Assembly (NCBI GenBank): GCA_030390025.1
Contig: CM059431.1
Span: forward strand, 109,122,001-109,186,000
Direction of reading: 5' to 3'
Length of the DNA: 64,000 nt
Source: Squalus acanthias
Taxonomy: Eukaryota
In this document: one piece after another, positions 4,832-43,615 of the stretch
Numbering within the stretch: the stretch's first letter is position 1
How the letters are laid out: every line of letters begins with the position of its first letter
Made by a program: the position numbers and the translations under genes
The notes under the pieces: generated by a model
What the model saw: the letters and a program-made list of their open reading frames with translations, nothing else
Told to the model about the DNA's origin: nothing
Database searches by the model: none

Positions 4832-5379
4832 ACTGGTGATGCACCATGGCAACGCTGCTTGGATGGCCTGGAACTACTGGGGGGGGTTTAAGCAATGACG
4901 TTTTTTCTGACACCCTACTATCCCGGGATTACCAAACAACTTAACTATGCCATTTGTCTCACCCGACAGTACTTAACCCCGAGTAATATGCCACAGAAAT
5001 GCAATGCGTCTGATTTCAGCTGCTCTTCCTCCCACCCCCTCCGTTCAAATGTGAAAATGGTAAATATTGTCAGAGCAAGGAACATGAGAGCCTCACAGGG
5101 AGTGTCATCTGACAACTTTCCAGGAGGTTAGAAGCTGTTAGGTGGACATTTGTTGCAATCTCCTGGTTATCTTGAACCCACGTTGCTGCATTAATCCTGG
5201 CAGTGAGCGGCAGAATTGAATCATTGGACTTACTTTGGCCCAGCAATGCAGAGTCATGACCGAAAGTCAGAAATTAACACAACGATTGAACAAAGAATCA
5301 TTTTAGAAAAGGGTTTTAATGCTCATTAATACTCAAATTGCCTTACAAATTAATAAACTGTGCTACCTAAAAGAAACTG

Positions 5380-5905
5380 GAGCACTGCATTCATTTCTGG
5401 GCACCACACCTCAGGAAGGATATATTGGCCTTGGAGGGGGAGCAGCGCAGATTCACCAGAATGATATCGGGGCTCCAAGGGTTAAAATATGAGGACAGGC
5501 TGCATAGACTGGGCTTGTATTCCCTCTCGAGTATAGAAGATTAAAGGGTGATCTAACTGAAGCGTTTAAGATGATTAAAGTATTTGATAGGGTGGGAGAG
5601 TCCAGAACAAGGGGGCATAACCTTAAAATTAGAGCCAGGCCGTTCAGGGATGATGTCAGGTAGCACTTCTACATGCAAAGGGGAGTGGAAATCTGAAGCT
5701 TTCTTCCCCCAAAAAGCTGTTGAGGCTGGGGGTCAACTAAAAATGTCAAAACCAAGATTGATAGATTTTTGTTAGGCAAGGTTTTAAGGGTTACGGAACC
5801 AAGGCGGGTAGATGGAGTTCAGATACAGATCAGCCGTGATTTAATTGAATGGCGGAACAGACACGAGGGGCTGAATGGCCTCCTCCTGCTCCTATGTTCC
5901 TGTGA
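5380..5905 (+). mobile_element. CR1 3' fragment
   Basis: Decayed ORF2 C-terminus and CR1 3' UTR; similar to 28410-28945. Confidence 0.85.
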
Positions 5906-7939: not shown

Positions 7940-8420
7940 GACATAGGAACATAAGAATGCACAGGTCCATCAGACAGGTCCCCACAATACCCCTCTGCCA
8001 ATATTTTCACCGAGTAATAAATTCAACTCTCCTGAAGTTGCTGATAGAATCTCAGCCATTCCACTCTTTCACCACCCTCGACATAAAATAGTTAAATCTG
8101 AACTGTCTTTTTGCCTTCCCACTTCTAACACTGAGGCTATGTGATTCTGCTGTCGAATCTGTGACTATGTTAAATATTTACCTCCTTTAAGATCTCAAAT
8201 ACTTCAGTAAGATCGCTCTTGATCCTTCTCCTCTCCAGTGCAAACATTCTCAGCCCCAGCAGCCTCTCGTCGTATCTCAAGTGCCTAATCCTGGCTACAA
8301 ACTCGGTTGCCCTGTGCTGCACCCTTGCCAACGTTTGGCTATCTTTCTCATAATACGGTGACCAAAATCGTGCAGAGTACTCCGGGTGGGGCTGATCCTG
8401 GGCTCCGCACAAGCTCTGGA
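7940..8420 (-). mobile_element. Old degraded CR1 3' fragment
   Basis: ORF 8170-8412 reads PHPEYSARFWSPY...LERRRIKSDLTEVF. Confidence 0.7.
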
Positions 8421-8691
8421 ATTACTTCTTGAGATTTCTGCTCGATTCATCTTGCTGCACAGCCCGAGACCCTGTTTGATCTCTTTAGTGCTGCTGGAAA
8501 CTATACTGATGGCTTCAACAACCTATCCACCAGCACGCCCAATTCACCCTCCCGGTGTGAGAACATACAAATATTAAGAAAGCCGTGATCAATTGGGGCC
8601 GATTCCATGAGGACACAGGAGCTTACAGAGAGATTTGATAGAGGTATTTTAAAATTATGAAGCGACGCCACAGGGTAGATAGAAAGAGACT

Positions 8692-8794
8692 GGGCGTAAC
8701 TTTGAACGTCGGCTGGTCGGAAAACTGACGATATCAGATCGGCTGCCCGTTATAAAACCCCGCCCAATATTCCTTTCCCATGAAAGTTACCCCC
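8692..8794. mobile_element. 103-bp MITE, PIF/Harbinger-like
   Basis: TIRs GGGCGTAACTTT and AAAGTTACCCCC (11/12 match); 3-bp TSD ACT; interrupts a CR1 fragment. Confidence 0.75.
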
Positions 8795-8839
8795 ACTGCA
8801 TCCAGTGTTTGAGGGGGACTTACAATGAGGGGGCATAAA

Positions 8840-9372
8840 TAGAATCATAGAATCATAGAATGGTTACAGTACAGAAGGAGGCCATTCAGCCCGTCGAGCC
8901 TGTGCTGGCTCTCTGCAACAGCACTTCAGCTTGTCCCACTCCCCCGCCCTTTCCCCGTAGCCCTGCAAATTTTTTTCCTTCAGGTACTTATCCAATTCCC
9001 TTTTGAAAGCCTCGATTGAATCTGCCTCCACCACCCTTTCAGGCAGTGCATTCCAGATCATAACCACTCGCTGCGTAAAAAAGTTTTTCCTCATGTCGCC
9101 TTTAGTTCTTCTGCCAATCACCTTAAATCTGTGTCATCTGGTTCTCGGCCGTTCCGCCAATGGGAACAGTTTCTATCTCCTCTGTCTAGAACCCTCATGA
9201 TTTTGAACACCTCTATCAAATCTACTCTCAACCTTCTCTGCTCTAAGGAGAACAACCCTAGCTTCTCCAGTCTATCCACGTAACTGAAGTCCCTCATGAC
9301 TGGAACCAATCTTGTAAATCTTTTCTGCCCCCTCTCCAAGGCCTTCACATCCTTCCTGAAGTGCAGTGCCCA
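8840..9372 (-). mobile_element. CR1 3' fragment with (ATTCTATG)n tail, inserted in an older plus-strand CR1 fragment (about 8610-9600)
   Basis: ORFs 8864-9121 and 9118-9459 are CR1 C-terminal peptides; tail ATAGAATC repeats. Confidence 0.88.
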
Positions 9373-11054
9373 GATATGCACTAAATGAAACATATTTAAG
9401 ACAGAGACCAGGAGCATCTTTACCATAGTTAGTGATTGAAGCAGAGCCCATCTCAACATAGGTGTGACAGGTAGTTGAAGGAAAGGGAGATAAAGAGATT
9501 TAGGAACAGGGCGGGCACATAGGATTACTGTTCATGTGGAGGATAAACGTCAACATAGACTAGTTGGGCTGAACGTAATGTATGTAATTCGATATAATTC
9601 ATCAGCCCAGTTCCTTAATCCATCCAGATCCTTCATTATACGATCAACCTATTCCCTGTTGTTTGCACTCCCTCTCAGTCTGGTATCATCTTCAAACTTG
9701 GAGAGTTTTGTTTCTGTCCCCACTTCGAAGTTATTTCTGCACACAGTAAACAGCGGTGTCTCCAGCACTGATCCCTGAGCAACCACCTATTTACTTCCTC
9801 TGCTTCAGCGAAGTTTCAATCCACTTCAGGGGTGCTCCAGCAGTGCCACGCTTCCAACCTTGCTGACCAATCTCCTATGATCCTTATTGTAGGTAAAGCT
9901 TATAGCGCACTTTCACCGATACTATGGAGCATGGATAAGAACCACCACCACTGTGACGTGTGCACTGTGCTACAGTTTTAATATGTGGGATTCAGATTAA
10001 TTCTAGTGTGAACAAAATTATAGGCTTCTGAGACTCAACTCCAAATGAACCGCAAGTCTTATTCCTAAAAGCCCCGCTCAAGAAAAGATGGAATAAACCT
10101 TTGTTGATAAAAAAAAATAAGTAAACAGAGAAAAGGAAGCATACACTTACCTCAACAATTGTCCTCAGCTGCTAATTCCCCTTATAATGCAGGCAAACTT
10201 TGGGTGTAACAAACAAAAATAGTGATGTGTGTGTAAGGGGACATATTGCTAAGTGGTTCCGTGGGGCAGGATTGCAGTCGGTACTTTTTAATATAAAAAA
10301 GGGACAAGTCAGTCTGAATCTGAATTACACCAATTACAAGATTTTCAAATATCTGAATGCTTGCCTAGTTCAAAAAAATTGAAATTCAGACTTTGAGAGG
10401 TGGCTGCTTTGGAACTGAAGGGGAGATTTTGCACTTCAGTGCTCCTAGAAAGTACCAAGGGTGCATAAGGGCAACACGTTCATCACCCCGCTCCCACCCC
10501 CGCCCCGCCCCGCCACAGCCCATGATTTTTCAAACAGAAAATAAGCGGGTTGGGGGCGTACTGTTTCCTAATATGTACTCTTGGCGTGTGCGAGGAGCAC
10601 TGAAAAAGTAAATATCTCCTTAAATCGACAACGTGACTACAATATGATTGTGTCAGTGTATTTCTGAGCAACACAAAACCCTGTCTGGCATGACTCACTT
10701 GCCAGTGCTTAACACTGCCTGAGTGACTTCCTTGACAATACAATCAGCTGTACGCTTATAAGATTACATGAACGACATCGTCAGTGCAACATTCTTGCCA
10801 AAATAAATAGTGGTCATTTCCTGGTGTCATCTAAGCAGCACATTTAATTAAGTCTCTGCCACCATGCCAGTCATGGAATTATAAAAGGAAGAAGTGTGTT
10901 TTGAGGTCAAAGGTGTTGAGTTTTAGCCTCTTTCAGAACTTGGATTGTACTAGAACTTGTCCAACATTTACACAGGGTTCTATCCCACCCCAGTCAATCG
11001 GATCTTACAAATGCTCTGCTTCCCCCCCCCCTCACCCAACTCGAGTCAACAGTC

Positions 11055-16323: not shown

Positions 16324-16999
16324 GGCTCTTTATCATACACCTGGCCATGATATGTCCGACTCAGAACTCTTGTACATTGTGAACTGGGGGGAAAAAAAAG
16401 AATTCTAACAGGGTTGCAATTTATCTCATAGAAAATTAATTAAAACTGCGCTGTGATATAATTTTACCATTATGATATAATACCCATGGAAAAATGTTTT
16501 CATTGATGATTCACTGCAGTTGTTGTCAGTAGGACTTCAGTAGCACATCATAGATGCATTTAAGGGGAAGCTCGAGGGAAGTACAGGAGGGAAAAATGAA
16601 TAGAAGGGTATGCTGATAGGGTAAGATGATGTAGGGTGGGAGGAGGCTCGTGTGGAGCATGAACACTGCCATAGACCAGCTGGGCCGAATGGCATGTTTC
16701 TATGCTGTAAATACTATGTAATGTCAGGTGTGTGAATTATCCATACAGTGGCGACTTGAACTGAAGAAAGCACCTGGCAAAACAGTTCGATTTTAAATGT
16801 CTATCCTTTCTTTTTGTGTGTGGAATATTTAAAGCTGGTGATGAATTGGAGGGGTGATTCCACGATCGATTGCTCCCAGCGAGGAACCGCACATGGCAGG
16901 GAGCACAGGTGGGGGTGATAGGTGGGCCCGCAGCCCCCAATTGCCCTGAGATTAATGAATGGCTGTCCCAATCTCCGGTCCCTCTACGCTGGGAGCACC

Positions 17000-17622
17000 C
17001 GGGGGTTGGAGTATAAAAGCAGGGAAGTCCTGCTGCAACTGTACAGGGTATTGGTGAGACCACACCTTGAGTACTGTGTACAGTTTTGGTCTCCTTATTT
17101 AAGGAAGGATATACTTGCATTGGAGGCAGTTCAGAGACGATTCACTAGGTTAATTCCAGAGATGAGGGGGTTGACTTATGAGGAAAGTTTGAGCAGGCTG
17201 GGCCTATACTCATTGGAATTTAGAAGAATGAGAGATGATCTTATTGAAACATATAAGATACTGAGGGGGTTCAACAAGGTAGATGCAGAGAGGATGTTTC
17301 CCCTCGTGGGGAAATCTAGAACTCGGGGGCATAGTTTCAGAATAAAGGGTCGCCCTTTTAGAACTGATACGAGGAGGAATTTCTTCTCTCAGAGGGTCGT
17401 AAATCTGTGGAATTCTCTGCCGCAGAGAGCCATGGAGGCTGGGTCATTAAATACATTTAAGTTGGAGATAGAGAGATTTTTGCAAGATAAGGGAGTGAAG
17501 GGTTATGGGGAGCGGGCGGGGAAGTGGCTTTGAGCCCAAGATCAGCCATGATCTTATTGAATGGCGGAGCAGGCTCAAGGGGCCAAGTGGCCTATTCCTG
17601 CTCCTATTTCTTATGTTCTTAT
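17000..17622 (+). mobile_element. CR1 3' fragment with open C-terminal ORF2 segment
   Basis: RGLEYKSREVLLQLYRVLVRPHLEYCVQFW...WNSLP followed by the CR1 3' UTR. Confidence 0.92.
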
Positions 17623-19431: not shown

Positions 19432-21089
19432 ATAATAACATAAGAAATAGAAGCAGAGTAGGCCATTTGGCCCCTCGAGCCAATCAATAAGATCATGGCT
19501 GATCTTCTACCTCATCTCCACTTTCCTCCACTATCCCAAATTCCTTGATTCCCTTAATATTCAAAAATCTATCCATCTCTGTCTTGAATATACTCAACGA
19601 CTGAGCCTCCACAGCCCTCTGGGGTAGAGAATTCGAAAGATTCACCACCCTCTGAGTGAAGAAATTTCTCCTCATCTCAGTCTTAAATGGCCAAACCCTT
19701 ATTCTGAGACTGTGCCCCTGGTTCTAGACTCCCCAGCCAGGAGAAACATCCTCCCTGCATCTACTCTGTCAAGCTCTGTAAGAATTTTGTATGTTTCAAT
19801 GAGATCACCTCTCATTCTTCTAAACGCTCAAGAATATAGGCCTAGTCTACTCAATCTCTCCTCATAGGACAATCCCCCCATCCCAGGAACCAGTCTGGTG
19901 AACCTTTGTTGCACTCCCTCTACGGCAAGTATATCCTTCCTTAGGTAAGGAGACCAAAACTGTACACAATACTCCAGGTGTGGTCTCACCAGGGCCCTAT
20001 ATAATTGCAGTGAGACGTCTTTACTCTTATACTCAAATCCTCTTGTAATAAAGGCCAACATTGCATTTACTTTCCTAATTGCTTGCTGTACCTGCATGTT
20101 AACTTTCAGTGATTCTTGTACAAGGACACCCAGGTCCCTCTGAACACCAACATTTCCCAATCTCTCATCATTTCTCCACATTATATTCCATTTGCCATGT
20201 TCTTGCCCACTCACATAGCCTGTCTATATCCCCTTGAAGCCTCCTTGCATCCTCCTCACAACTTACATTCCCACCCAGCTTTGTATCATCAGCAAACTTG
20301 GATATATTACATTTGGTCCCCTCATCCAAATCATTGATGTAGATTGTGAATAGCTGAGGTCCAAGCACTGATCCTTGCGGTACCCCACTAGTTACAGCCT
20401 GCCAACCTGAAAATGACCCGTTTATTCTTACTCTCTGTTTTCGGTCCATTAACCAATCCTCAATCCATGCTAGTATATTACTCCCAATCCCATGAGCCCT
20501 AATTTTGTTTAATAACCTCTTGTGTGGCACCTTATCGAATGCCTTCTGAAAATCCAAATACACCACATCCACTGGTCCCTCCTTGTCTATTCTACTAGTT
20601 ACAACCTCACAAAACTCTAACAGATTTGTCAAACACGATTTCCCTTTCATAAATCCATGTTGACTCTGCCCAATCCTATTATTATTTTCTATGTGCCCTA
20701 TTACCACGTCCTTAATAATAGATTCTAGCATTTTCCCTACTACTGATGTCAGGCTAACTGGTCTGTAGTTCCCCATTTTCTCTCTCCTTCCTTTCTAAAA
20801 TAGTGGGGTTACATTTGCTGTCTTCCAATCTGCGGGAACTGCTTTAGAATCTACGGAATTTTGGAAAATGACAACCAATGCATCCACTATCTCTATAGCC
20901 ACCTCTTTCAAAACCCTAGGATGTAGGCCATCAGGTCCAGGGAATTTATCGCCTTTCAGTCTCATTAATTTACCTGTACTATTTTTTTACTAATACTAAT
21001 TTCTTTCAGTTCCTCATTCTCGCTAGAGCCTTGGTTCTCCACTATTTCCGGGAAGGTTTTTGCATCTTCTTCTGTGAAGACAGTCACAA
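19432..21089 (-). mobile_element. Older decayed CR1 LINE, 3' part (RT, C-terminus, 3' UTR)
   Basis: ORFs 20168-20776 and 19828-20214 carry RT motifs (FADDTKL, GVPQGS) with a frameshift and deletion; it is interrupted near 21090. Confidence 0.92.
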
Positions 21090-21782
21090 TAGCCGGAATT
21101 TTGCCAGCGCTCAGGGGGCCGGTTTGGAGGTGGGACATCTGGCAAAATCGCAAAGATTGACAGTGGGCAGGGAACCTGCTGTCAACCCGCCTCCAATCAA
21201 TCTTCCCAAGTGTCGGGTCCCCGATCTGCGCATGGACCCGACATCTAGTGGCGGGAAGAGGATTATAGCCACTTAACTGCCTGTTAAAGATTGTTAACAG
21301 GCAGTTAACAGGCTCTTTTGCAATTTTGACACTTCTACTTCGGGCTTCCCGACGTCCGGACACCACGCCAGGTAAGTGTGGCGTGTTGTGAGTCTGCTGT
21401 AATGTTTCTGCATTGATGACAGCTGCAGAAGTGGTGTGAAGGATCCAATGGTGCACTGGTGAGTTTCAGAGGTAAGAAAATGTTGGGAAATTCATTTTTA
21501 ATGCATTTACACTTTTCTGTAGGTAACATTGGGAGAACCTCTCTCACCAGTGACAGATCGCTTCTGTAACCTCACCTGCAGCTGCCATCTGTTCTAGCCT
21601 AAGGAGGGAGTCACTAGAGAGCCTGGGTGCAAGAACTCACCTGTGAACAGTCATTGTCAGTGTTTGCAGCACCTCAATGCTGTCAAACACTGAGAAATGA
21701 GCTGTCAAAGAAAAATAGTGCGTGGTCCAGTTAAGAAAACCGGCAGATGATGCCTCATCAAATGACGTCATCTGACCGGCTT

Positions 21783-24700
21783 ACATAGATACATAGATAC
21801 ATAGAAGATAGGAGCAGGAGTAGGCCATCCGGCCCTTCGAGCCTGCTCCGCCATTTAATGAGATCATGGCTGATCCTTCAATTCAGTATCCCGTCCCCGC
21901 CTTCTCTCCGTAACCCTTAACCCCTTTTGCCTGTAGAAATATATCTAATTCCCTCTTAAATATATTTAATGAGCTGGCGTACACTGCCCTCTGTGGCAAT
22001 GAGTTCCACAGGTTCACCACTCTCTGAGTGAAGAAATTCCCCCTCATTTCTGTCCTAAATGGTTTAGCCCTTATCCTTAAATTATGTCCTCTAGTTCTGT
22101 TCTCACCCGCCAAGGGAAACATTCCTTCTGCATCTAATCTGTCTAGACCTGTCAGAATTTTATACACTTCTATGAGGTCCCCTCTCAATCTTCTAAACTC
22201 CAGTGTGTACATCCCTAAACTACATAGTCTCTCCTCATAGGTCAATCCCGCCATTCCTGGTATCAGCCTGGTGAATCGCCGCTGCACCCCCTCCATGGCA
22301 AGAACATCTTTCCTCAGATGAGGCGACCAAAACTGTACACAGTACTCGAGGTGTGGTCTCACCAGTGCCCTGTACAGCTGCAGCAAGGTATCCCTGTTCC
22401 TGTATTCCAACCCTTTTGCTATGAAGGCCAGCATACCGTTTGCCTTCTTGACCGCCTGTTGCACCTGCATGCTCGCCTTCAGTGACTGGTGTACAAGAAC
22501 ACCCAGGTCTCTCTGTACTTCCCCCTCTCCCAATTTATTGCCATTTAAATAATAATTTGCCCTCCCGTTCCTGCACCCAAGGTGGATAACTTCGCACTTG
22601 TCCACATTATAGTGCATCTGCCATTTATCCGCCCAATCACCCAGTCTGTCCAAATCGCTCTGGAGCTTCCTGGTCTCCTCCTCTGAGCCCACCCCCCCTC
22701 CTAGTTTAGTGTCGTCTGCAAATTTGGAAATGCTGCATTCGACTCCCTGATCCAGGTCATTAATATAAATTGTGAACAGCTGGGGACCCAGGACAGATCC
22801 CTGTGGTACCCCACTTGTTACTGCCTGCCATTCAGAAAATGAGCCGTTTATTCCAACTCTCTGTTTTCTATCTGACAGCCAGTTCTCTATCCACGTCAAT
22901 ACTTTCCCCTTTATCCCATGAGCTTCAATTTTCCATGCTAATCTTTTATGTGGGACCTTATCGAAGGCCTTTTGGAAGTCCAGGTACACCACATCTACTG
23001 GCTCTCCCCCATCTATTTTACCAGTTACTCCCTCAAAAAATTCCAATAGATTAGTCAAGCACGATTTACCCTTTGTAAATCCATGTTGACTCTGTCCTAT
23101 CCTGTCCCCATTTGCTAAGTGCTCGGCTATTTCATCCTTAATGATGGACTCCAGCATTTTGCCCACAACTGATGTAAGGCTTACAGGTCTGTAATTACCT
23201 GCTTTTTCCCTACCCCCCTTTTTGAATAGTGGGGTAACGTTAGCTACCCTCCAATCCATGGGCACTGTTCCCGAGTCTAATGAATTCTGAAAAATCATGC
23301 TTAGTGCATCCGCTATCTCTAGGGCCACCTCCTTCAGTACCCTAGGATGCATGTTATCAGGCCCTGGGGATTTGTCCGCCTTCAATCCCTTTAGCTTCCT
23401 TAACACCATATCCTTAGAGATATTGATTTGCGTCAGTTCCTCCTTTGCCAATGTCCCTATTTTTCCCGATATCCCAGGGAGGTTTTTTGTGTCTTCCTTC
23501 GTAAAGACTGACCCAAAGTATGCATTTAGTTGGTCTGCCATTTCCTTATTTCCCATTATATATTCCCCCGTATCTGACTGCAATGGACCAACTTTGGTTT
23601 TCACCAGTCTTTTCCTCTTGATATACTTATAAAAGCTTTTGGAGTTAGTTTTTATATTTTCCGCCAGCTTGCTTTCGTAAGCTATTTTGCCCTTCTTGAT
23701 TAAGCCCTTTGCCCTCCTTTGCTCTATCTTAAACTGTTCCCAATCTTCCGCTCTGGCGCGTTTTTTGGCTATTTTATACGCCCTATCTTTGGATTTTATG
23801 CTGTCTCTAATTTCCCCTGTTATCCACGGTTGAGTCACCTTTTTAGATTTCCTTTTATGCCAGATTGGTATAAACAATTTTTGCAATTTTGTCATTCTAT
23901 CTTTAAATGCTTGCCATTGTTTATCTACCTCCAGTCCTCCCAGGAACGTTGTCCAATCAGACCTACTCAGTTCCCGTCTAATGGCATCATAATTCCCCTT
24001 GTTTAAATTCAGGACCTGAGTCTCTGAGTCAATTTCTTCGCTCTCCATTTCGAGTGAGAAATCGATCATGTTATGATCGCTCTGACCCAAGGGTCCCCGT
24101 ACAACAAGATTACTAATTAGTCCCTTCTCATTGCACAGTACCCAGTCCAATATAGCCTGTTCCCGAGTTGGTTCCTCGACATATTGATCCAGATAACCAT
24201 CCCTTAAACACTCAAGGAATTCCTCCTCCTCATTATTTTTACTGATTAGGCTAGTCCAATCTATATGTAAGTTAAAGTCACCTATGATGACAGCTGTGCT
24301 CTTATTGCACGCTTCTCTAATTTCCCTCGTGATGCCCTCCCCAACCTCTATTTTACTATTTGGAGGCCTATATACCACTCCTATTAATGTTTTTCGCCCC
24401 TCGCTATTTCTTAGCTCCACCCATATAGATTCTGTATTAACTGAGTTAATATCCTTCCTTTCAATTGCATTTATCCCCTCTTTTACCAGCAATGCTACCC
24501 CTCCTCCCTTTCTTTTTTGTCGGTCCTTCCTAAATACTGAATACCCCTGTATGTTAAGCTCCCAGCCCTGCTCACCCTGCAACCATGTTTCCGTAATCCC
24601 AATTAGATCATAATTATTAACCTCTATTTCCACAGCTAATTCATCTACCTTGTTCCTGATGCTTCTCGCATTAAGGTATAAAACCCTCAGGCTTTTTTTA

Positions 24701-24902
24701 TGCTCACATTTTTTATGAATTAGTTTGGCCCTTTGTTTTTTGTTCCTCTCCTTTTTACCATTTATTTCTGTCTGCCTTTCACTTTCCTCTATTTCACTAC
24801 ATGGGTTTCTAGCCCCCTGCCATACTAGTTTAAATGCTCCCGAACTGCTTTATCAAAATTTACCCCGAGAACTTCAGTTCCATCTTTGCACATCTTGCAC
24901 AT
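21783..24902 (-). mobile_element. Young 5'-truncated CR1 LINE: ORF1 C-terminal stub, complete ORF2, 3' UTR and (ATCTATGT)n tail
   Basis: Uninterrupted ORF2; ORF1 stub reads CKDGTEVLGVNFDKAVREHLN*; octamer tail at about 21783-21806; candidate 3-bp TSD CTT (21780-21782, 24903-24905). Confidence 0.95.
21883..24849 (-). CDS. CR1 ORF2: APE endonuclease plus reverse transcriptase (stop-to-stop frame 988 codons; the ORF track starts it at a GTG at 24633)
   Basis: APE motifs YLNARSI, GITETW, GDFN, SDHN; RT motifs NYRPVSLTS, QHGF, YLDFQKAFDKVPH, GVPQGSVLGP, FADDTKL; CR1 C-terminus RPHLEYCVQFW and WNSLP. Confidence 0.95.
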   Translation of the reverse strand, partial: SSSGAFKLVWQGARNPCSEIEESERQTEINGKKERNKKQRAKLIHKKCEHKKSLRVLYLNARSIRNKVDELAVEIEVNNYDLIGITETWLQGEQGWELNIQGYSVFRKDRQKRKGGGVALLVKEGINAIERKDINSVNTESIWVELRNSEGRKTLIGVVYRPPNSKIEVGEGITREIREACNKSTAVIIGDFNLHIDWTSLISKNNEEEEFLECLRDGYLDQYVEEPTREQAILDWVLCNEKGLISNLVVRGPLGQSDHNMIDFSLEMESEEIDSETQVLNLNKGNYDAIRRELSRSDWTTFLGGLEVDKQWQAFKDRMTKLQKLFIPIWHKRKSKKVTQPWITGEIRDSIKSKDRAYKIAKKRARAEDWEQFKIEQRRAKGLIKKGKIAYESKLAENIKTNSKSFYKYIKRKRLVKTKVGPLQSDTGEYIMGNKEMADQLNAYFGSVFTKEDTKNLPGISGKIGTLAKEELTQINISKDMVLRKLKGLKADKSPGPDNMHPRVLKEVALEIADALSMIFQNSLDSGTVPMDWRVANVTPLFKKGGREKAGNYRPVSLTSVVGKMLESIIKDEIAEHLANGDRIGQSQHGFTKGKSCLTNLLEFFEGVTGKIDGGEPVDVVYLDFQKAFDKVPHKRLAWKIEAHGIKGKVLTWIENWLSDRKQRVGINGSFSEWQAVTSGVPQGSVLGPQLFTIYINDLDQGVECSISKFADDTKLGGGVGSEEETRKLQSDLDRLGDWADKWQMHYNVDKCEVIHLGCRNGRANYYLNGNKLGEGEVQRDLGVLVHQSLKASMQVQQAVKKANGMLAFIAKGLEYRNRDTLLQLYRALVRPHLEYCVQFWSPHLRKDVLAMEGVQRRFTRLIPGMAGLTYEERLCSLGMYTLEFRRLRGDLIEVYKILTGLDRLDAEGMFPLAGENRTRGHNLRIRAKPFRTEMRGNFFTQRVVNLWNSLPQRAVYASSLNIFKRELDIFLQAKGVKGYGEKAGTGY

Positions 24903-24991
24903 CTTCTTAATCGGCCGGCAAGCCCGCAGTGCGGGAACCCGGAAACCAGCTGGCCCGCTCCCAAGCCGCATCGATCGATAAAATTGCGGCC

Positions 24992-25183
24992 TATGTATTT
25001 GTTTAATTTCTTTGCCATTTCCTTATTCCTCATTATAATTTCTTCTGTCTCAGCCTATAAGGGACCCACATTTACTTTCGCTAATCTTTTTCTTTTTACA
25101 TACCTATAGAAGCTTTTACAGTCTGTTTTTTTGTCTCTCGCTAGTTTACTCTCATATTCTATTTTCCCTTTCTTTATCAATTT
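24992..25183 (-). mobile_element. 5' continuation of the older CR1 split by the nested insertions
   Basis: Resumes CR1 ORF2 where 21089 breaks off; collinear with 23520-23705 of the young copy. Confidence 0.85.
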
Positions 25184-26179: not shown

Positions 26180-26625
26180 TGAATCATAGAATCATAACAG
26201 CACAGTAGGAAGCCATTCGGCCCATCGAGCCTGTGCCAGCTCTCTGCAAGAGCACTTCAGCTAGTCCCAAGCCCCCGCCCTTTCTCCGTAGCCCTGCAAT
26301 TTTTTTTCCTTCAGGTACTTATCTAATTCCCTTTTGAAAGCCACAATTGAATCTGCCTCCACCACTATTTCAGTCAGTGCATTCCAGATCATAACCACTC
26401 GCTGCATAAAAAGTTTTTCCTCATGTCGCCTTTGGATCTTCTGCCAATCACCTTAAATCTGTGTCCTCTGGTTCTCGACCCTTCCGCCAATAGGAACAGT
26501 TTCTCTCTATCTACTCTGTCTTGATCCATCATGATTTTGAACACCTCTATCAAATCTCCTCTCAACCTTCTCTGCTCTAAGGAGAACAACCCCAGCTTCT
26601 CCAGTCTATCCACGTAACTGAAGTA
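26180..26625 (-). mobile_element. CR1 3' fragment
   Basis: Near-identical to 8840-9290. Confidence 0.88.
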
Positions 26626-28409: not shown

Positions 28410-28945
28410 TAGACTGTGTCGGGGTACTGCACTCAGTTCTGGACACCGCACCTCAGGAAGGATATTGCTCTTGGAGACGGTGCAGCAGAGTTTCACCTGG
28501 GCTAAAAGTGTTAAATTATGAGGACAGGTTGCATAGGCTCGGCTTGTATTCCCTCAAGTATAGATGATTAAGGGGTGATATAATTGAGGTGTTAAAGGAT
28601 TTGATTTGGTAGATGGAGAGAAACTTTTTCCTTCAACGGGGGAGTCCAGAACATGGGGGCATAACCGTAAAATTAGAGCCAGGCCGTTCAGGAGCGATGT
28701 CAGGAGGCACGTCTTCACACAAAGGGTAGTGGAAATCTGGAACTCTCTCCCCCAAAAAGCTGTTGAGGCTGAGGGTCAATTGAAAATTTCAAAACTGAGA
28801 TTGCTAGAATTTAGTTAGCCAAGGGTATTAAGGGTTACTGAAGCAAGGTGGGTAGATGGAGTTGAGATACAGATCAGCCGAGATCTAACTGAATGGCGGA
28901 ACAAGCTTGAGGGGCTGAATGGCCTACTCCTGTTCCTATGTTCCA
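28410..28945 (+). mobile_element. CR1 3' fragment
   Basis: ORF 28606-28818 (FTQRVVEIWNSLP) and CR1 3' UTR. Confidence 0.85.
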
Positions 28946-39230: not shown

Positions 39231-40112
39231 CATTATGCAACGGTTTACACAGAAAAGGAAACAAAATTGTGGAAATGTGACGCCAAAACACTGATTGAAA
39301 TCCTGAAATCCAATGGAATAAAAAGGAATTTGGCAGATTCAGTCACCTTGTAGCAATGGCCTTGGTCATTGCAGGGTTGTTTTTTCAGTCGTATGTTTTA
39401 TTTTTTGAGCTGTCACCTTTTTAAGAGCTGTGTCAGCTATTCTGAAGCTGTTTGTCAGCTTTACTGAGCTGAGGAAGTAGACACGCATGACATCTCCATT
39501 TCTGACATGTTAGGCTTACATGACAGTTTAGTTTAAAAAGAAACTGCCCATTAAAGCAATGAAGGTAGTTAAGCTGTTTGGCTTTGTTTGAGGATGAACA
39601 CTTACATAAATTATGGAAAGTAGACCACTTTGCGATTGTTTAATGTGGGATAAATAAAACACACATCAGGGGAAGATTTTCCGTGTTCGCTCTACGTGTT
39701 TTTATGATTTGGCTGCAAATGGTAAATAGAGAAGACCCTGGTAGAGCCTGGAAGCAGCGAAAATCAGAAATTTGTGTGGGTCAGAGAACTATCCCGGTTT
39801 TCCGATCGTTATCGTGAATTTGGGTGCAGGCTCGGGAAAATCTCCAAGAGAGAAATCTAGCTGAACAGCTCAGATGAGGCCATAAGCCATTGCAGTGAAA
39901 TGGAAATGCTTCAAATCCATCATCTGAACTGTACGATTAGATCATTGCCAGTAGACTCCAGAATGCCTGATATTTTTATTCTAGAACATGGAGCTGGGAA
40001 GGGCATAACTGTTCTGGTTCAGTTTTGGCTGGAAACAGGAGTCAAAGTAAAAATGGAAAACCACGATGATCCAAAACAGTGTCCTCTTTGATGGATTAAT
40101 GATTACAATGAA

Positions 40113-43189: not shown

Positions 43190-43615
43190 TTACAATGTAT
43201 TTGTAGCACAGAAACAGGCCATTCGGCCCAACAGGTCCATGCCAGTGTTTATGCTCCACATGAGCCTCCTCCTACACCTATTCATCCACCCTCATCAACA
43301 TATCCTTCTATTCCTTTCTCCCTCATGCGCTTATCTAGCTTCCCATTGAATGCATCTCTACTATTTGCCTCAACTACTCCCTGTGGTAGCGAGTTCCACA
43401 TTCTCAACACTCTCTGGGTAAAGAAGTTTCCCCTGAATTCCTTATTGGAATCATTACTGACTATTTCATATTTATGGCCTCTAGTTTTAGTCTCCCCTGC
43501 AAGTGGAAACATCTTCTCTGCATCTGCCCTAACAAACCCTTTCCTAATCTTGAAGACCTCCATCAGGTCACCCCTCAATCTTCTCTTTTCGAGAGGAATG
43601 AGCCCCAGCCTGTTG
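43190..43615 (-). mobile_element. CR1 3' fragment
   Basis: ORF 43282-43578 (RGDLMEVFK...WNSLP). Short 3' ends of the same subfamily occur at about 3660-3755, 16550-16722, 35825-35942 and 53510-53680. Confidence 0.87.

Follow-up and report, generated by a model that had tools for sequence, protein, structure and literature searches.

Programmed -1 ribosomal frameshifting on heptamers of the form X_XXY_YYZ is classical for retroviruses, long terminal repeat (LTR) retrotransposons and coronaviruses. In Rous sarcoma virus, the heptamer A_AAU_UUA is directly followed by the UAG stop codon of gag; the coronavirus site requires a pseudoknot with three stems, and its 0-frame stop codon is not adjacent. 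Here we analyze the junction between the two open reading frames (ORF1 and ORF2) of a CR1 long interspersed nuclear element (LINE) in a 64,000-nt stretch of the genome of the shark Squalus acanthias (GenBank assembly GCA_030390025.1, contig CM059431.1, positions 109,122,001 to 109,186,000 of the forward strand; the whole stretch is called the window below). In this element, ORF1 ends in the heptamer T_TTA_AAC immediately followed by a stop codon, and ORF2 lies in the -1 frame. From the comparative sequence evidence, we consider programmed -1 frameshifting, giving an ORF1-ORF2 fusion, to be probably the main route to ORF2, at a rough probability of 0.68. An earlier reading of the window made from its letters alone (the sequence-only reading) had proposed such a fusion for this CR1 lineage; comparison with relatives supports that proposal, and a structure stimulating the frameshift was not found.

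The CR1 junction resembles that of Rous sarcoma virus in that the heptamer forms the last two sense codons and the stop codon is adjacent; there, the outcome is a minority structural-polymerase fusion. It differs from the retroviral sites in that these have a downstream stem-loop or pseudoknot and in that their upstream protein is Gag rather than an esterase-type ORF1 protein (ORF1p). The coronavirus ORF1a/1b element uses U_UUA_AAC, the same heptamer as CR1, according to the available part of PMC8499926; the heptamer alone is in common, and there is no homology.

Among LINEs with an apurinic-type endonuclease (APE), a -1 frameshift is stated to be required for ORF2 of TRE5-A and TRE3-A from Dictyostelium discoideum in the available text of PMC5911963, and by analogy these elements would be a precedent for -1 frameshifting in APE-type LINEs. 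They are similar to CR1 in having two ORFs, with ORF2 encoding an endonuclease and a reverse transcriptase, but differ in their amoebal host, in belonging to a different LINE clade, in lacking an esterase ORF1 and in carrying an oligo-A tail. The non-LTR frameshift cases in the accessible portion of the review by Atkins et al. 2016 (PMC5009743) comprise HeT-A gag only, and the translation of L1 ORF2 is described there as an unknown kind of initiation. Human LINE-1 shares with CR1 a bicistronic LINE RNA and, according to the same portion, has a tiny ORF2 output for which the AUG of ORF2 is unneeded (PMC5009743); unlike CR1, it has an inter-ORF spacer, no heptamer, no fixed frame relation and separate, unfused products.

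According to the available part of a 2026 survey of the group (PMC13343379), 22-34% of the genomes of sharks and rays consists of CR1-group elements, which are also the principal retrotransposon in many vertebrates. The available parts of this survey and of PMC4120745, PMC4255032 and PMC1947958 contain no statement on CR1 frameshifting. Within those parts, the survey makes no mention of a frameshift, overlap, slippery site, start codon or reinitiation; the accessible text of the ORF1 study by Metcalfe and Casane makes none of an overlap or stop codon, and in that of two other literature matches the word "frameshift" is used for mutations only. No description of programmed frameshifting in CR1 was found in the literature searched, the coverage of which excluded Haas 1997, Kajikawa 1997, Kapitonov and Jurka 2003 and supplements.

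The ORF1-ORF2 junction in the window

The junction is located on the minus strand, in the context ...CGG GAG CAT TTA AAC TAG TAT GGC AGG GGG CTA G..., and comprises the following features, the heptamer, both stop codons and the G run being read directly from the window letters:

24834-24828, minus strand: slippery heptamer T_TTA_AAC, in the phase of ORF1
24827-24825, minus strand: ORF1 stop codon TAG, directly 3' of the heptamer (TAA in five other subfamilies)
24852-24850, minus strand: TAA closing the -1 (ORF2) frame, 22 nt ahead of the ORF1 stop codon
24817-24813, minus strand: GGGGG run, beginning 10 nt past the last base of the heptamer (after TAG and TATGGCA)
24828..24893, minus strand: ORF1 remnant, the last 22 codons of a 315-aa esterase-type ORF1 (tblastn, residues 294-315, 95% identity)
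24676..24834, minus strand: -1-frame linker running from the heptamer up to the endonuclease domain, 53 codons with no stop and no Met (the other two frames have 5 and 9 stops)
21883..24849, minus strand: ORF2 frame, stop to stop, 988 aa, intact

The sequence-only reading had ORF1 ending in CGG GAG CAT TTA AAC TAG with the heptamer at 24834-24828, and this proved correct in every coordinate, as did the X_XXY_YYZ phase of the heptamer relative to ORF1 on the minus strand. It had also described a TAA shortly upstream in the ORF2 frame, an ORF2 open to 21883 and a first in-frame ATG at SDHNM, at the end of the endonuclease domain; all three are present, the stop codon of ORF2 being at 21885-21883 and the Met being residue 260. 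The -1 frame, TTT AAA CTA GTA TGG, is open from 24849 to this stop codon and hence from the slip site onward, as is the linker in B, C, E and F (families defined below).

Here and below, A to F denote six divergent CR1 subfamilies of the S. acanthias genome, and the window copy belongs to family A. The -1 frame is closed 22 nt 5' of the ORF1 stop codon in A, C, E and F, where the stop in this frame is at an equivalent place and leaves a 25-nt overlap in C, E and F, and 118 nt 5' of it in B. With the -1 frame shut closely upstream, the change of frame is confined to a short stretch that holds the heptamer (22 nt in the window). The window (64 kb) contains two copies of the 10-mer TTTAAACTAR, versus 0.24 expected. 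The second occurrence, TTTAAACTAA at 39528-39537 on the minus strand, has neither a CR1 or ORF1 context nor a G run and was discarded as a chance match.

A real ORF1 in the window, as the sequence-only reading had implied, was not borne out. The open frame in ORF1 phase spans 65 codons from stop to stop, of which all but the last 22 are unrelated flank, the copy being 5'-truncated near 24893. The window copy is a dead, 5'-truncated insertion that merely preserves the signal and is itself unable to make the fusion.

Conservation of the junction among relatives

Using the 351 nt that surround the junction as a query against the S. acanthias genome (3.7 Gb), we obtained 1941 candidates and scored 40 of them. 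All 40 places, the window and 39 others, are 100% identical over the junction, a rounded figure that includes some places differing by one base. The 39 others match window positions 24892-24640, and the sequences diverge upstream of the truncation point: among 29 other loci that were fetched, 21 run upstream into a common ORF1 sequence and 8 are truncated at other points. A complete ORF1 of 315 aa, ending at the heptamer and TAG, is present in 4 of the 6 copies examined (L003, L005, L016 and L025). This protein (MAVELGPVSC...REHLN) has cysteine pairs near its N-terminus and contains a GDSL/SGNH esterase domain (Pfam PF13472 Lipase_GDSL_2, 45.7 bits). The first Met of ORF2 is at codon 260 in all 6 examined copies. 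Family A is a very young and abundant CR1 family; B is young too, and intact copies of both are numerous. In a separate case, L020 (positions 1-1000), a family A copy is cut inside ORF1 and the ORF1 frame continues into unrelated reverse-transcriptase-like sequence (…YIDDCIGA…), the copy being an insertion into another retroelement.

Because the copies within a single young family hardly differ, they carry no information on selection, and ORF1 proteins from other species were therefore used as queries for further subfamilies. The ends of ORF1 were found by tblastn protein homology only, without use of the motif, and 85 of them were located in 86 own-genome loci. TTTAAAC stands in ORF1 phase immediately before the first in-frame stop codon at 77 of these 85 ends, and at 47 of 55 when the 30 loci fetched by junction DNA are left aside and those obtained with protein queries from other species are counted. 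The 8 exceptions are single decayed copies, with other members of their families keeping the site; they comprise G-run indels (L045, L047, L050 and L076), a premature stop (L051), a rearrangement (L046) and two copies with TTTGAAC (L058 and L077). In the six subfamilies, located by homology, ORF1 ends in NNT TTA AAC TAR with a G5 run 7-8 nt further on, the codon before TTA is CAT, GGT or GCT, and ORF2 is at -1, the frame that it occupies in all intact copies. The junctions are as follows:

Family A: gag caT TTA AAC TAG tatggcaggggg
Family B: ggg ggT TTA AAC TAA tttgtcaggggg
Family C: ggg ggT TTA AAC TAA cttggcaggggg
Family D: agg gcT TTA AAC TAA ataagggggggg
Family E: agg gcT TTA AAC TAA attttgggggc
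Family F: gag ggT TTA AAC TAA aatggcaggggg

Relative to A, the subfamilies show 53-73% amino acid identity over the C-terminal half of ORF1 and 45-80% over the endonuclease domain. Across twelve representatives compared without gaps, pairwise identity over the 66 nt upstream of the heptamer is 30-83% (median 50%), and the majority base has a frequency of 0.53 at the third codon positions of this segment. In a wider alignment, the sole other conserved feature near the junction is a run of at least 5 G starting 7-10 nt past the heptamer. The check that the sequence-only reading had suggested, namely, conservation of the heptamer and its phase, thus came out in favor of its proposal: the heptamer is kept at the nucleotide level, with the adjacent stop codon and ORF2 at -1, in six diverged subfamilies and on CR1-like contigs from unrelated metagenomes.

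These metagenome contigs contain host-derived LINE fragments. In 8 loci with an ORF1 similar to protein P0109, TTTAAAC and the stop codon (TAG or TAA) precede (A)AGGGGGAAGGGGA; L090, L095, L097 and L148 have ORF2 at -1, and about 6 more metagenome loci carry mutated remnants of the motif. Among ORF1 homologues with an intact C-terminus, all 32 elasmobranch-like proteins (named sources include sawshark, smooth-hound, zebra shark, devil ray, stingrays, skate and electric ray) and all 4 amniote-like ones, including two from Alligator mississippiensis, end in Leu-Asn, as does none of 34 teleost-like homologues. The residue before Leu-Asn is variable (G, D, T, A, S, C, Y and one E), and a U-ending codon is possible for it in 35 of the 36. 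Furthermore, in two stingray NCBI gene models (P0112 and P0032), the protein continues over the junction as ...GG-FKL-..QGAG..., implying that the string TTT AAA CTN occurs there as well. A scan of genome contigs found bacterial SGNH hydrolases only, at 22-29% identity.

The Leu-Asn C-terminus, shared by 36 of 36 homologues, could also suggest that the motif has no part in the translation of ORF2 and is kept for another reason, either for these two residues of ORF1p or as a signal in the RNA or DNA. Were the two residues the target of selection, there would be no reason for UUA, AAC and the preceding wobble U to be fixed. In the six families, UUA accounts for 0.169 of Leu codons and AAC for 0.416 of Asn codons, T occupies 0.236 of third positions, and canonical heptamers in phase are found at 5 of 1891 other codon positions of the six ORF1 bodies. 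A chance origin of the heptamer is unlikely. Furthermore, since the wobble U, UUA and AAC are all fixed while neighboring synonymous sites are near saturation, selection for Leu-Asn alone is insufficient. We regard retention for such a reason, together with the joining of the two frames by polymerase slippage, as highly improbable. The long G run just before the heptamer in B and C could slip in transcription; no such run is present upstream in A, D and E, and RNA sequencing (RNA-seq) reads carry no junction indels at a frequency of at least 2%.

The raw RNA-seq reads, from two runs (X20 and X21), span the junction with about 30-60 reads per orientation over L003:1300-1900. At the threshold of 2% of reads, no insertions, deletions or splice joints were detected at the junction, and the heptamer and stop codon are unchanged. 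Frame repair in the RNA was therefore ruled out at this threshold, the two frames staying separate at that level. Reads of both orientations are present, and they depart from L003 at eight fixed positions (e.g. 1452, 1507, 1520, 1534 and 1590), none of them in the heptamer or stop codon. They therefore show the presence of RNA of a close relative or subfamily and not sense-strand expression of the window copy.

Routes from ORF1 to ORF2

In the five families with an intact linker (A, F, C, B and E), the -1 frame is free of stop codons over the 46-70 codons that separate the heptamer from the endonuclease motif (L/F)NARS, and the other two frames contain 3-13 stops. Linker length differs among the families, and little of the sequence is conserved past the first residues. 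In A and B, it contains no Met, and no AUG occurs in the ORF2 frame from the junction until inside the endonuclease domain. The sequence-only reading had named an in-frame AUG ahead of the endonuclease domain as an observation that would speak against frameshifting: such an AUG is absent from A and B, in line with that reading, and present in the linkers of C, E and F, although at unconserved positions.

The linker Met of C, E and F fits an independent start of ORF2, whether by internal entry, leaky scanning or a near-cognate codon in the linker or where the endonuclease domain begins, with the heptamer as a passenger. A CTG just ahead of the endonuclease domain in A, F and C would suit such a start as well, but B has TTG, and E and D have CTA, in that place. 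Given that the Leu codon before LNARS can be CTG, TTG or CTA, a conserved CUG start was excluded. Moreover, independent initiation would not require the linker to be open at -1 from the heptamer, as it is in the five intact families despite drift, and it leaves the conservation of the heptamer at the nucleotide level unexplained. Accordingly, we view this route as quite improbable.

If ORF2 is instead reached by programmed -1 frameshifting, a minority of ribosomes would slip back by one base on U_UUA_AAC in place of terminating and would continue into ORF2. The Leu-tRNA and Asn-tRNA would shift their pairing from UUA AAC to UUU AAA, with CUA as the codon decoded next. A tandem -1 slip of this kind is the simplest route because it uses all the conserved features. 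The entry into the frame TTT AAA CTA GTA TGG proposed in the sequence-only reading stands, but not the junction peptide FKLVW: since UUA and AAC are decoded before the slip, the predicted junction is ...EHLN-LVWQG..., within a Gag-Pol-like fusion of about 1296 aa (315 + 981). In view of the lack of an RNA structure downstream, the slip would be inefficient; the slow reading of the adjacent stop codon, which may serve as a pause letting the tRNAs slip, and the G5 run are possibly the sole stimulators. A low yield would suit a LINE, for which much ORF1p and very little ORF2 protein (ORF2p) would be needed.

Several observations weigh against this reading. No conserved structure was found 3' of the heptamer by minimum free energy folding of 100-128 nt from ten lineages, in which pseudoknots and G-quadruplexes were not formally modelled. 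The z-scores for the 100 nt past the heptamer (-0.39, -0.34, -1.30, 0.29, -0.47, 0.72, -2.30, 1.18, 0.24 and 0.94) make 9 of the 10 lineages indistinguishable from shuffles, and the exception, L090, folds from 27 nt downstream. No stimulatory hairpin or pseudoknot 5-9 nt past the heptamer and no shared nested helix near the site were detected, trans-acting factors lying outside such modelling. The stop codon always abuts the heptamer, an adjacency that frameshifting does not need and that a termination-dependent mechanism would fit too. The linker AUGs of the shark families C, E and F occur at differing, non-homologous places, and an ORF2-frame ATG is found 0-6 nt past the stop codon in three metagenome loci (L090, TAG GT ATG; L095, TAG CT ATG; L148, C TAA TGG). 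As to the conservation itself, the shark subfamilies share ancestry, and their agreement is conservation rather than six independent draws; similarly, the nine bases TTTAAACTA are invariant in the twelve representatives by construction, as these were picked by the motif, and the unbiased count is 77/85.

Two candidate structures were considered separately. The UAUGG/CCAUG stem that the sequence-only reading had suggested downstream of the heptamer is, by eye, absent from the other families. By eye, a G-quadruplex could form in B and C and could not in A, and it was rejected as a general stimulator.

The absence of a detected frameshift-stimulating structure, the stop codon that always abuts the conserved block and the ORF2-frame AUG 0-6 nt past the stop codon in some lineages, including a UAAUG overlap in L148, would all be accommodated by termination and reinitiation. 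Under this mechanism, ribosomes would stay on the RNA after the ORF1 stop codon and restart at -1, with or without an AUG, and TTTAAAC, the stop codon and the G5 run would form a retention or restart signal. The Bombyx element SART1 is said to use such UAAUG stop-start coupling (attributed to Kojima et al. 2005). It is like CR1 in having ORF2 at -1, and its ORF2 overlaps the ORF1 stop codon as in the metagenome locus L148, where the stop-start overlap reads AAC TAA TGG; it is unlike the shark families A-F, which have no AUG overlapping the stop codon. A restart codon overlapping or near the stop codon is lacking in A and B and was found only in L090, L095 and L148. Human L1 ORF2 is another case for which termination and reinitiation have been proposed, as the sequence-only reading had noted. 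Its initiation is regarded as independent of its AUG in the available part of Atkins et al. 2016 (PMC5009743). However, reinitiation leaves unexplained why a canonical heptamer is in phase, against the background of 5/1891, and why ORF2 without exception occupies the -1 frame; A and B lack the AUG, the position of which is unconserved elsewhere. We consider reinitiation, the principal rival to frameshifting, to be a rather unlikely main route.

The arrangement in a sister group of esterase-ORF1 LINEs also bears on this question. In 14 metagenome loci (L107, L111, L115, L116, L117, L120, L125, L130, L135, L140, L141, L142, L147 and L162), with an ORF1 about 30-37% identical to that of the shark, ORF2 is in the ORF1 frame behind a single TGA-C (contexts TGA CTA C and TGA CCA T). 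This layout looks like programmed UGA readthrough that would give an ORF1-ORF2 fusion, and it suits readthrough rather than reinitiation. In both groups, the frame relation corresponds to a single recoding step, readthrough in one and a -1 slip in the other; a fusion needs this match, and reinitiation does not.

Taken at the sequence level, the CR1 junction has the properties of a -1 frameshift site except for a stimulatory structure, and its structure-less, stop-adjacent layout is unusual. A broader scenario is possible, although we put it forward tentatively. In this scenario, CR1, which dominates among the retrotransposons of most non-mammalian vertebrates, would make its enzyme as a Gag-Pol-like fusion via an ancient, structure-less signal (U_UUA_AAC, stop codon and G5 run) that predates the shark-amniote split. 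The G5 run would be a dock for a trans-acting factor, perhaps ORF1p, by which the ratio of ORF1p to ORF2p is set. Esterase-ORF1 LINEs as a group would then be recoding elements, CR1 by a -1 slip and an invertebrate sister lineage by UGA readthrough, in parallel to the two strategies of retroviruses.

The window insertion and implications for CR1 biology

Octamer tails define CR1, and the assignment of the window element to this clade rests on its domain order, ORF1 type and tail. The remaining features of the element are:

21782..24893, minus strand: 5'-truncated young CR1 LINE copy (family A), comprising the last 22 ORF1 codons, the junction, the complete ORF2, the 3' untranslated region (UTR) and the octamer tail
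24073..24672, minus strand: apurinic-type endonuclease domain, ORF2 residues 60-259 (PF03372, 38.6 bits; PF14529, 39.7 bits)
22582..23214, minus strand: reverse transcriptase domain, ORF2 residues 546-756 (PF00078, 110.2 bits)
21782..21805, minus strand: 3' tail of three TCTATGTA octamers, no poly-A

ORF2 has the endonuclease and reverse transcriptase in the order that is characteristic of the CR1 clade (PF03372, PF14529 and PF00078). The 3' end in tandem repeats, (TCTATGTA)x3 at 21782-21805, preceded by a short 3' UTR, and the 5' truncation are likewise CR1-like. The SGNH/GDSL esterase-type ORF1 is found in the full-length copies, with 22 codons of it held in the window; such an ORF1 is reported for canonical vertebrate CR1 in the available part of PMC13343379.

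An older CR1 ORF2 fragment, identified by tblastn at 24980-25156, adjoins the window insertion. The flank at the 5' truncation point (window 24894-24915, minus strand) ends in ...ATGTGCAAGATG directly ahead of the TGTGCAAAGATG with which the element begins; ATGTGCAAGATG is a near-duplicate of the first bases of the element and may be microhomology used in 5' end joining. At least 12 further fragments of other CR1 subfamilies, with 30-73% amino acid identity to ORF2, are scattered over the window, including those at 5377-5789, 8058-9783, 16943-17521, 19535-21100, 24980-25156, 26270-26622, 28425-28770 and 43300-43608. Nearly all of them are 3' parts, as expected of 5'-truncated LINE insertions.

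Public annotations have absorbed CR1 ORFs, the gene and protein models concerned being P0112, P0032 and P0012. A stingray "hydroxyacid oxidase 2 isoform X1" holds the esterase, the GG-FKL junction and the endonuclease. Another protein carries the label of a Pseudomonas aeruginosa SGNH/GDSL hydrolase but shares 56% identity with the ORF1 of the shark CR1 and has GLN as its last residues; it probably represents host DNA in a bacterial assembly. A search for natural long ORF1-ORF2 single proteins gave 4 matches, all of them gene models, which were not counted as real fusion proteins. For annotation, the consequence is that ORF2 has no start codon in these elements and that gene predictors fuse or mislabel it, as in the ray "hydroxyacid oxidase 2".

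How ORF2 of a LINE is translated from a bicistronic RNA is a long-standing question, to which a conserved canonical slip site offers a simple and testable answer for the CR1 clade. If ORF2 is indeed reached by -1 frameshifting, the CR1 junction would be a natural eukaryotic -1 signal with no obvious RNA structure, useful for mechanistic study. For the elements themselves, the slip would set a fixed, low ratio of ORF2 to ORF1 product, and the resulting fusion would physically tie ORF2p to ORF1p and its RNA, providing for cis-preference.

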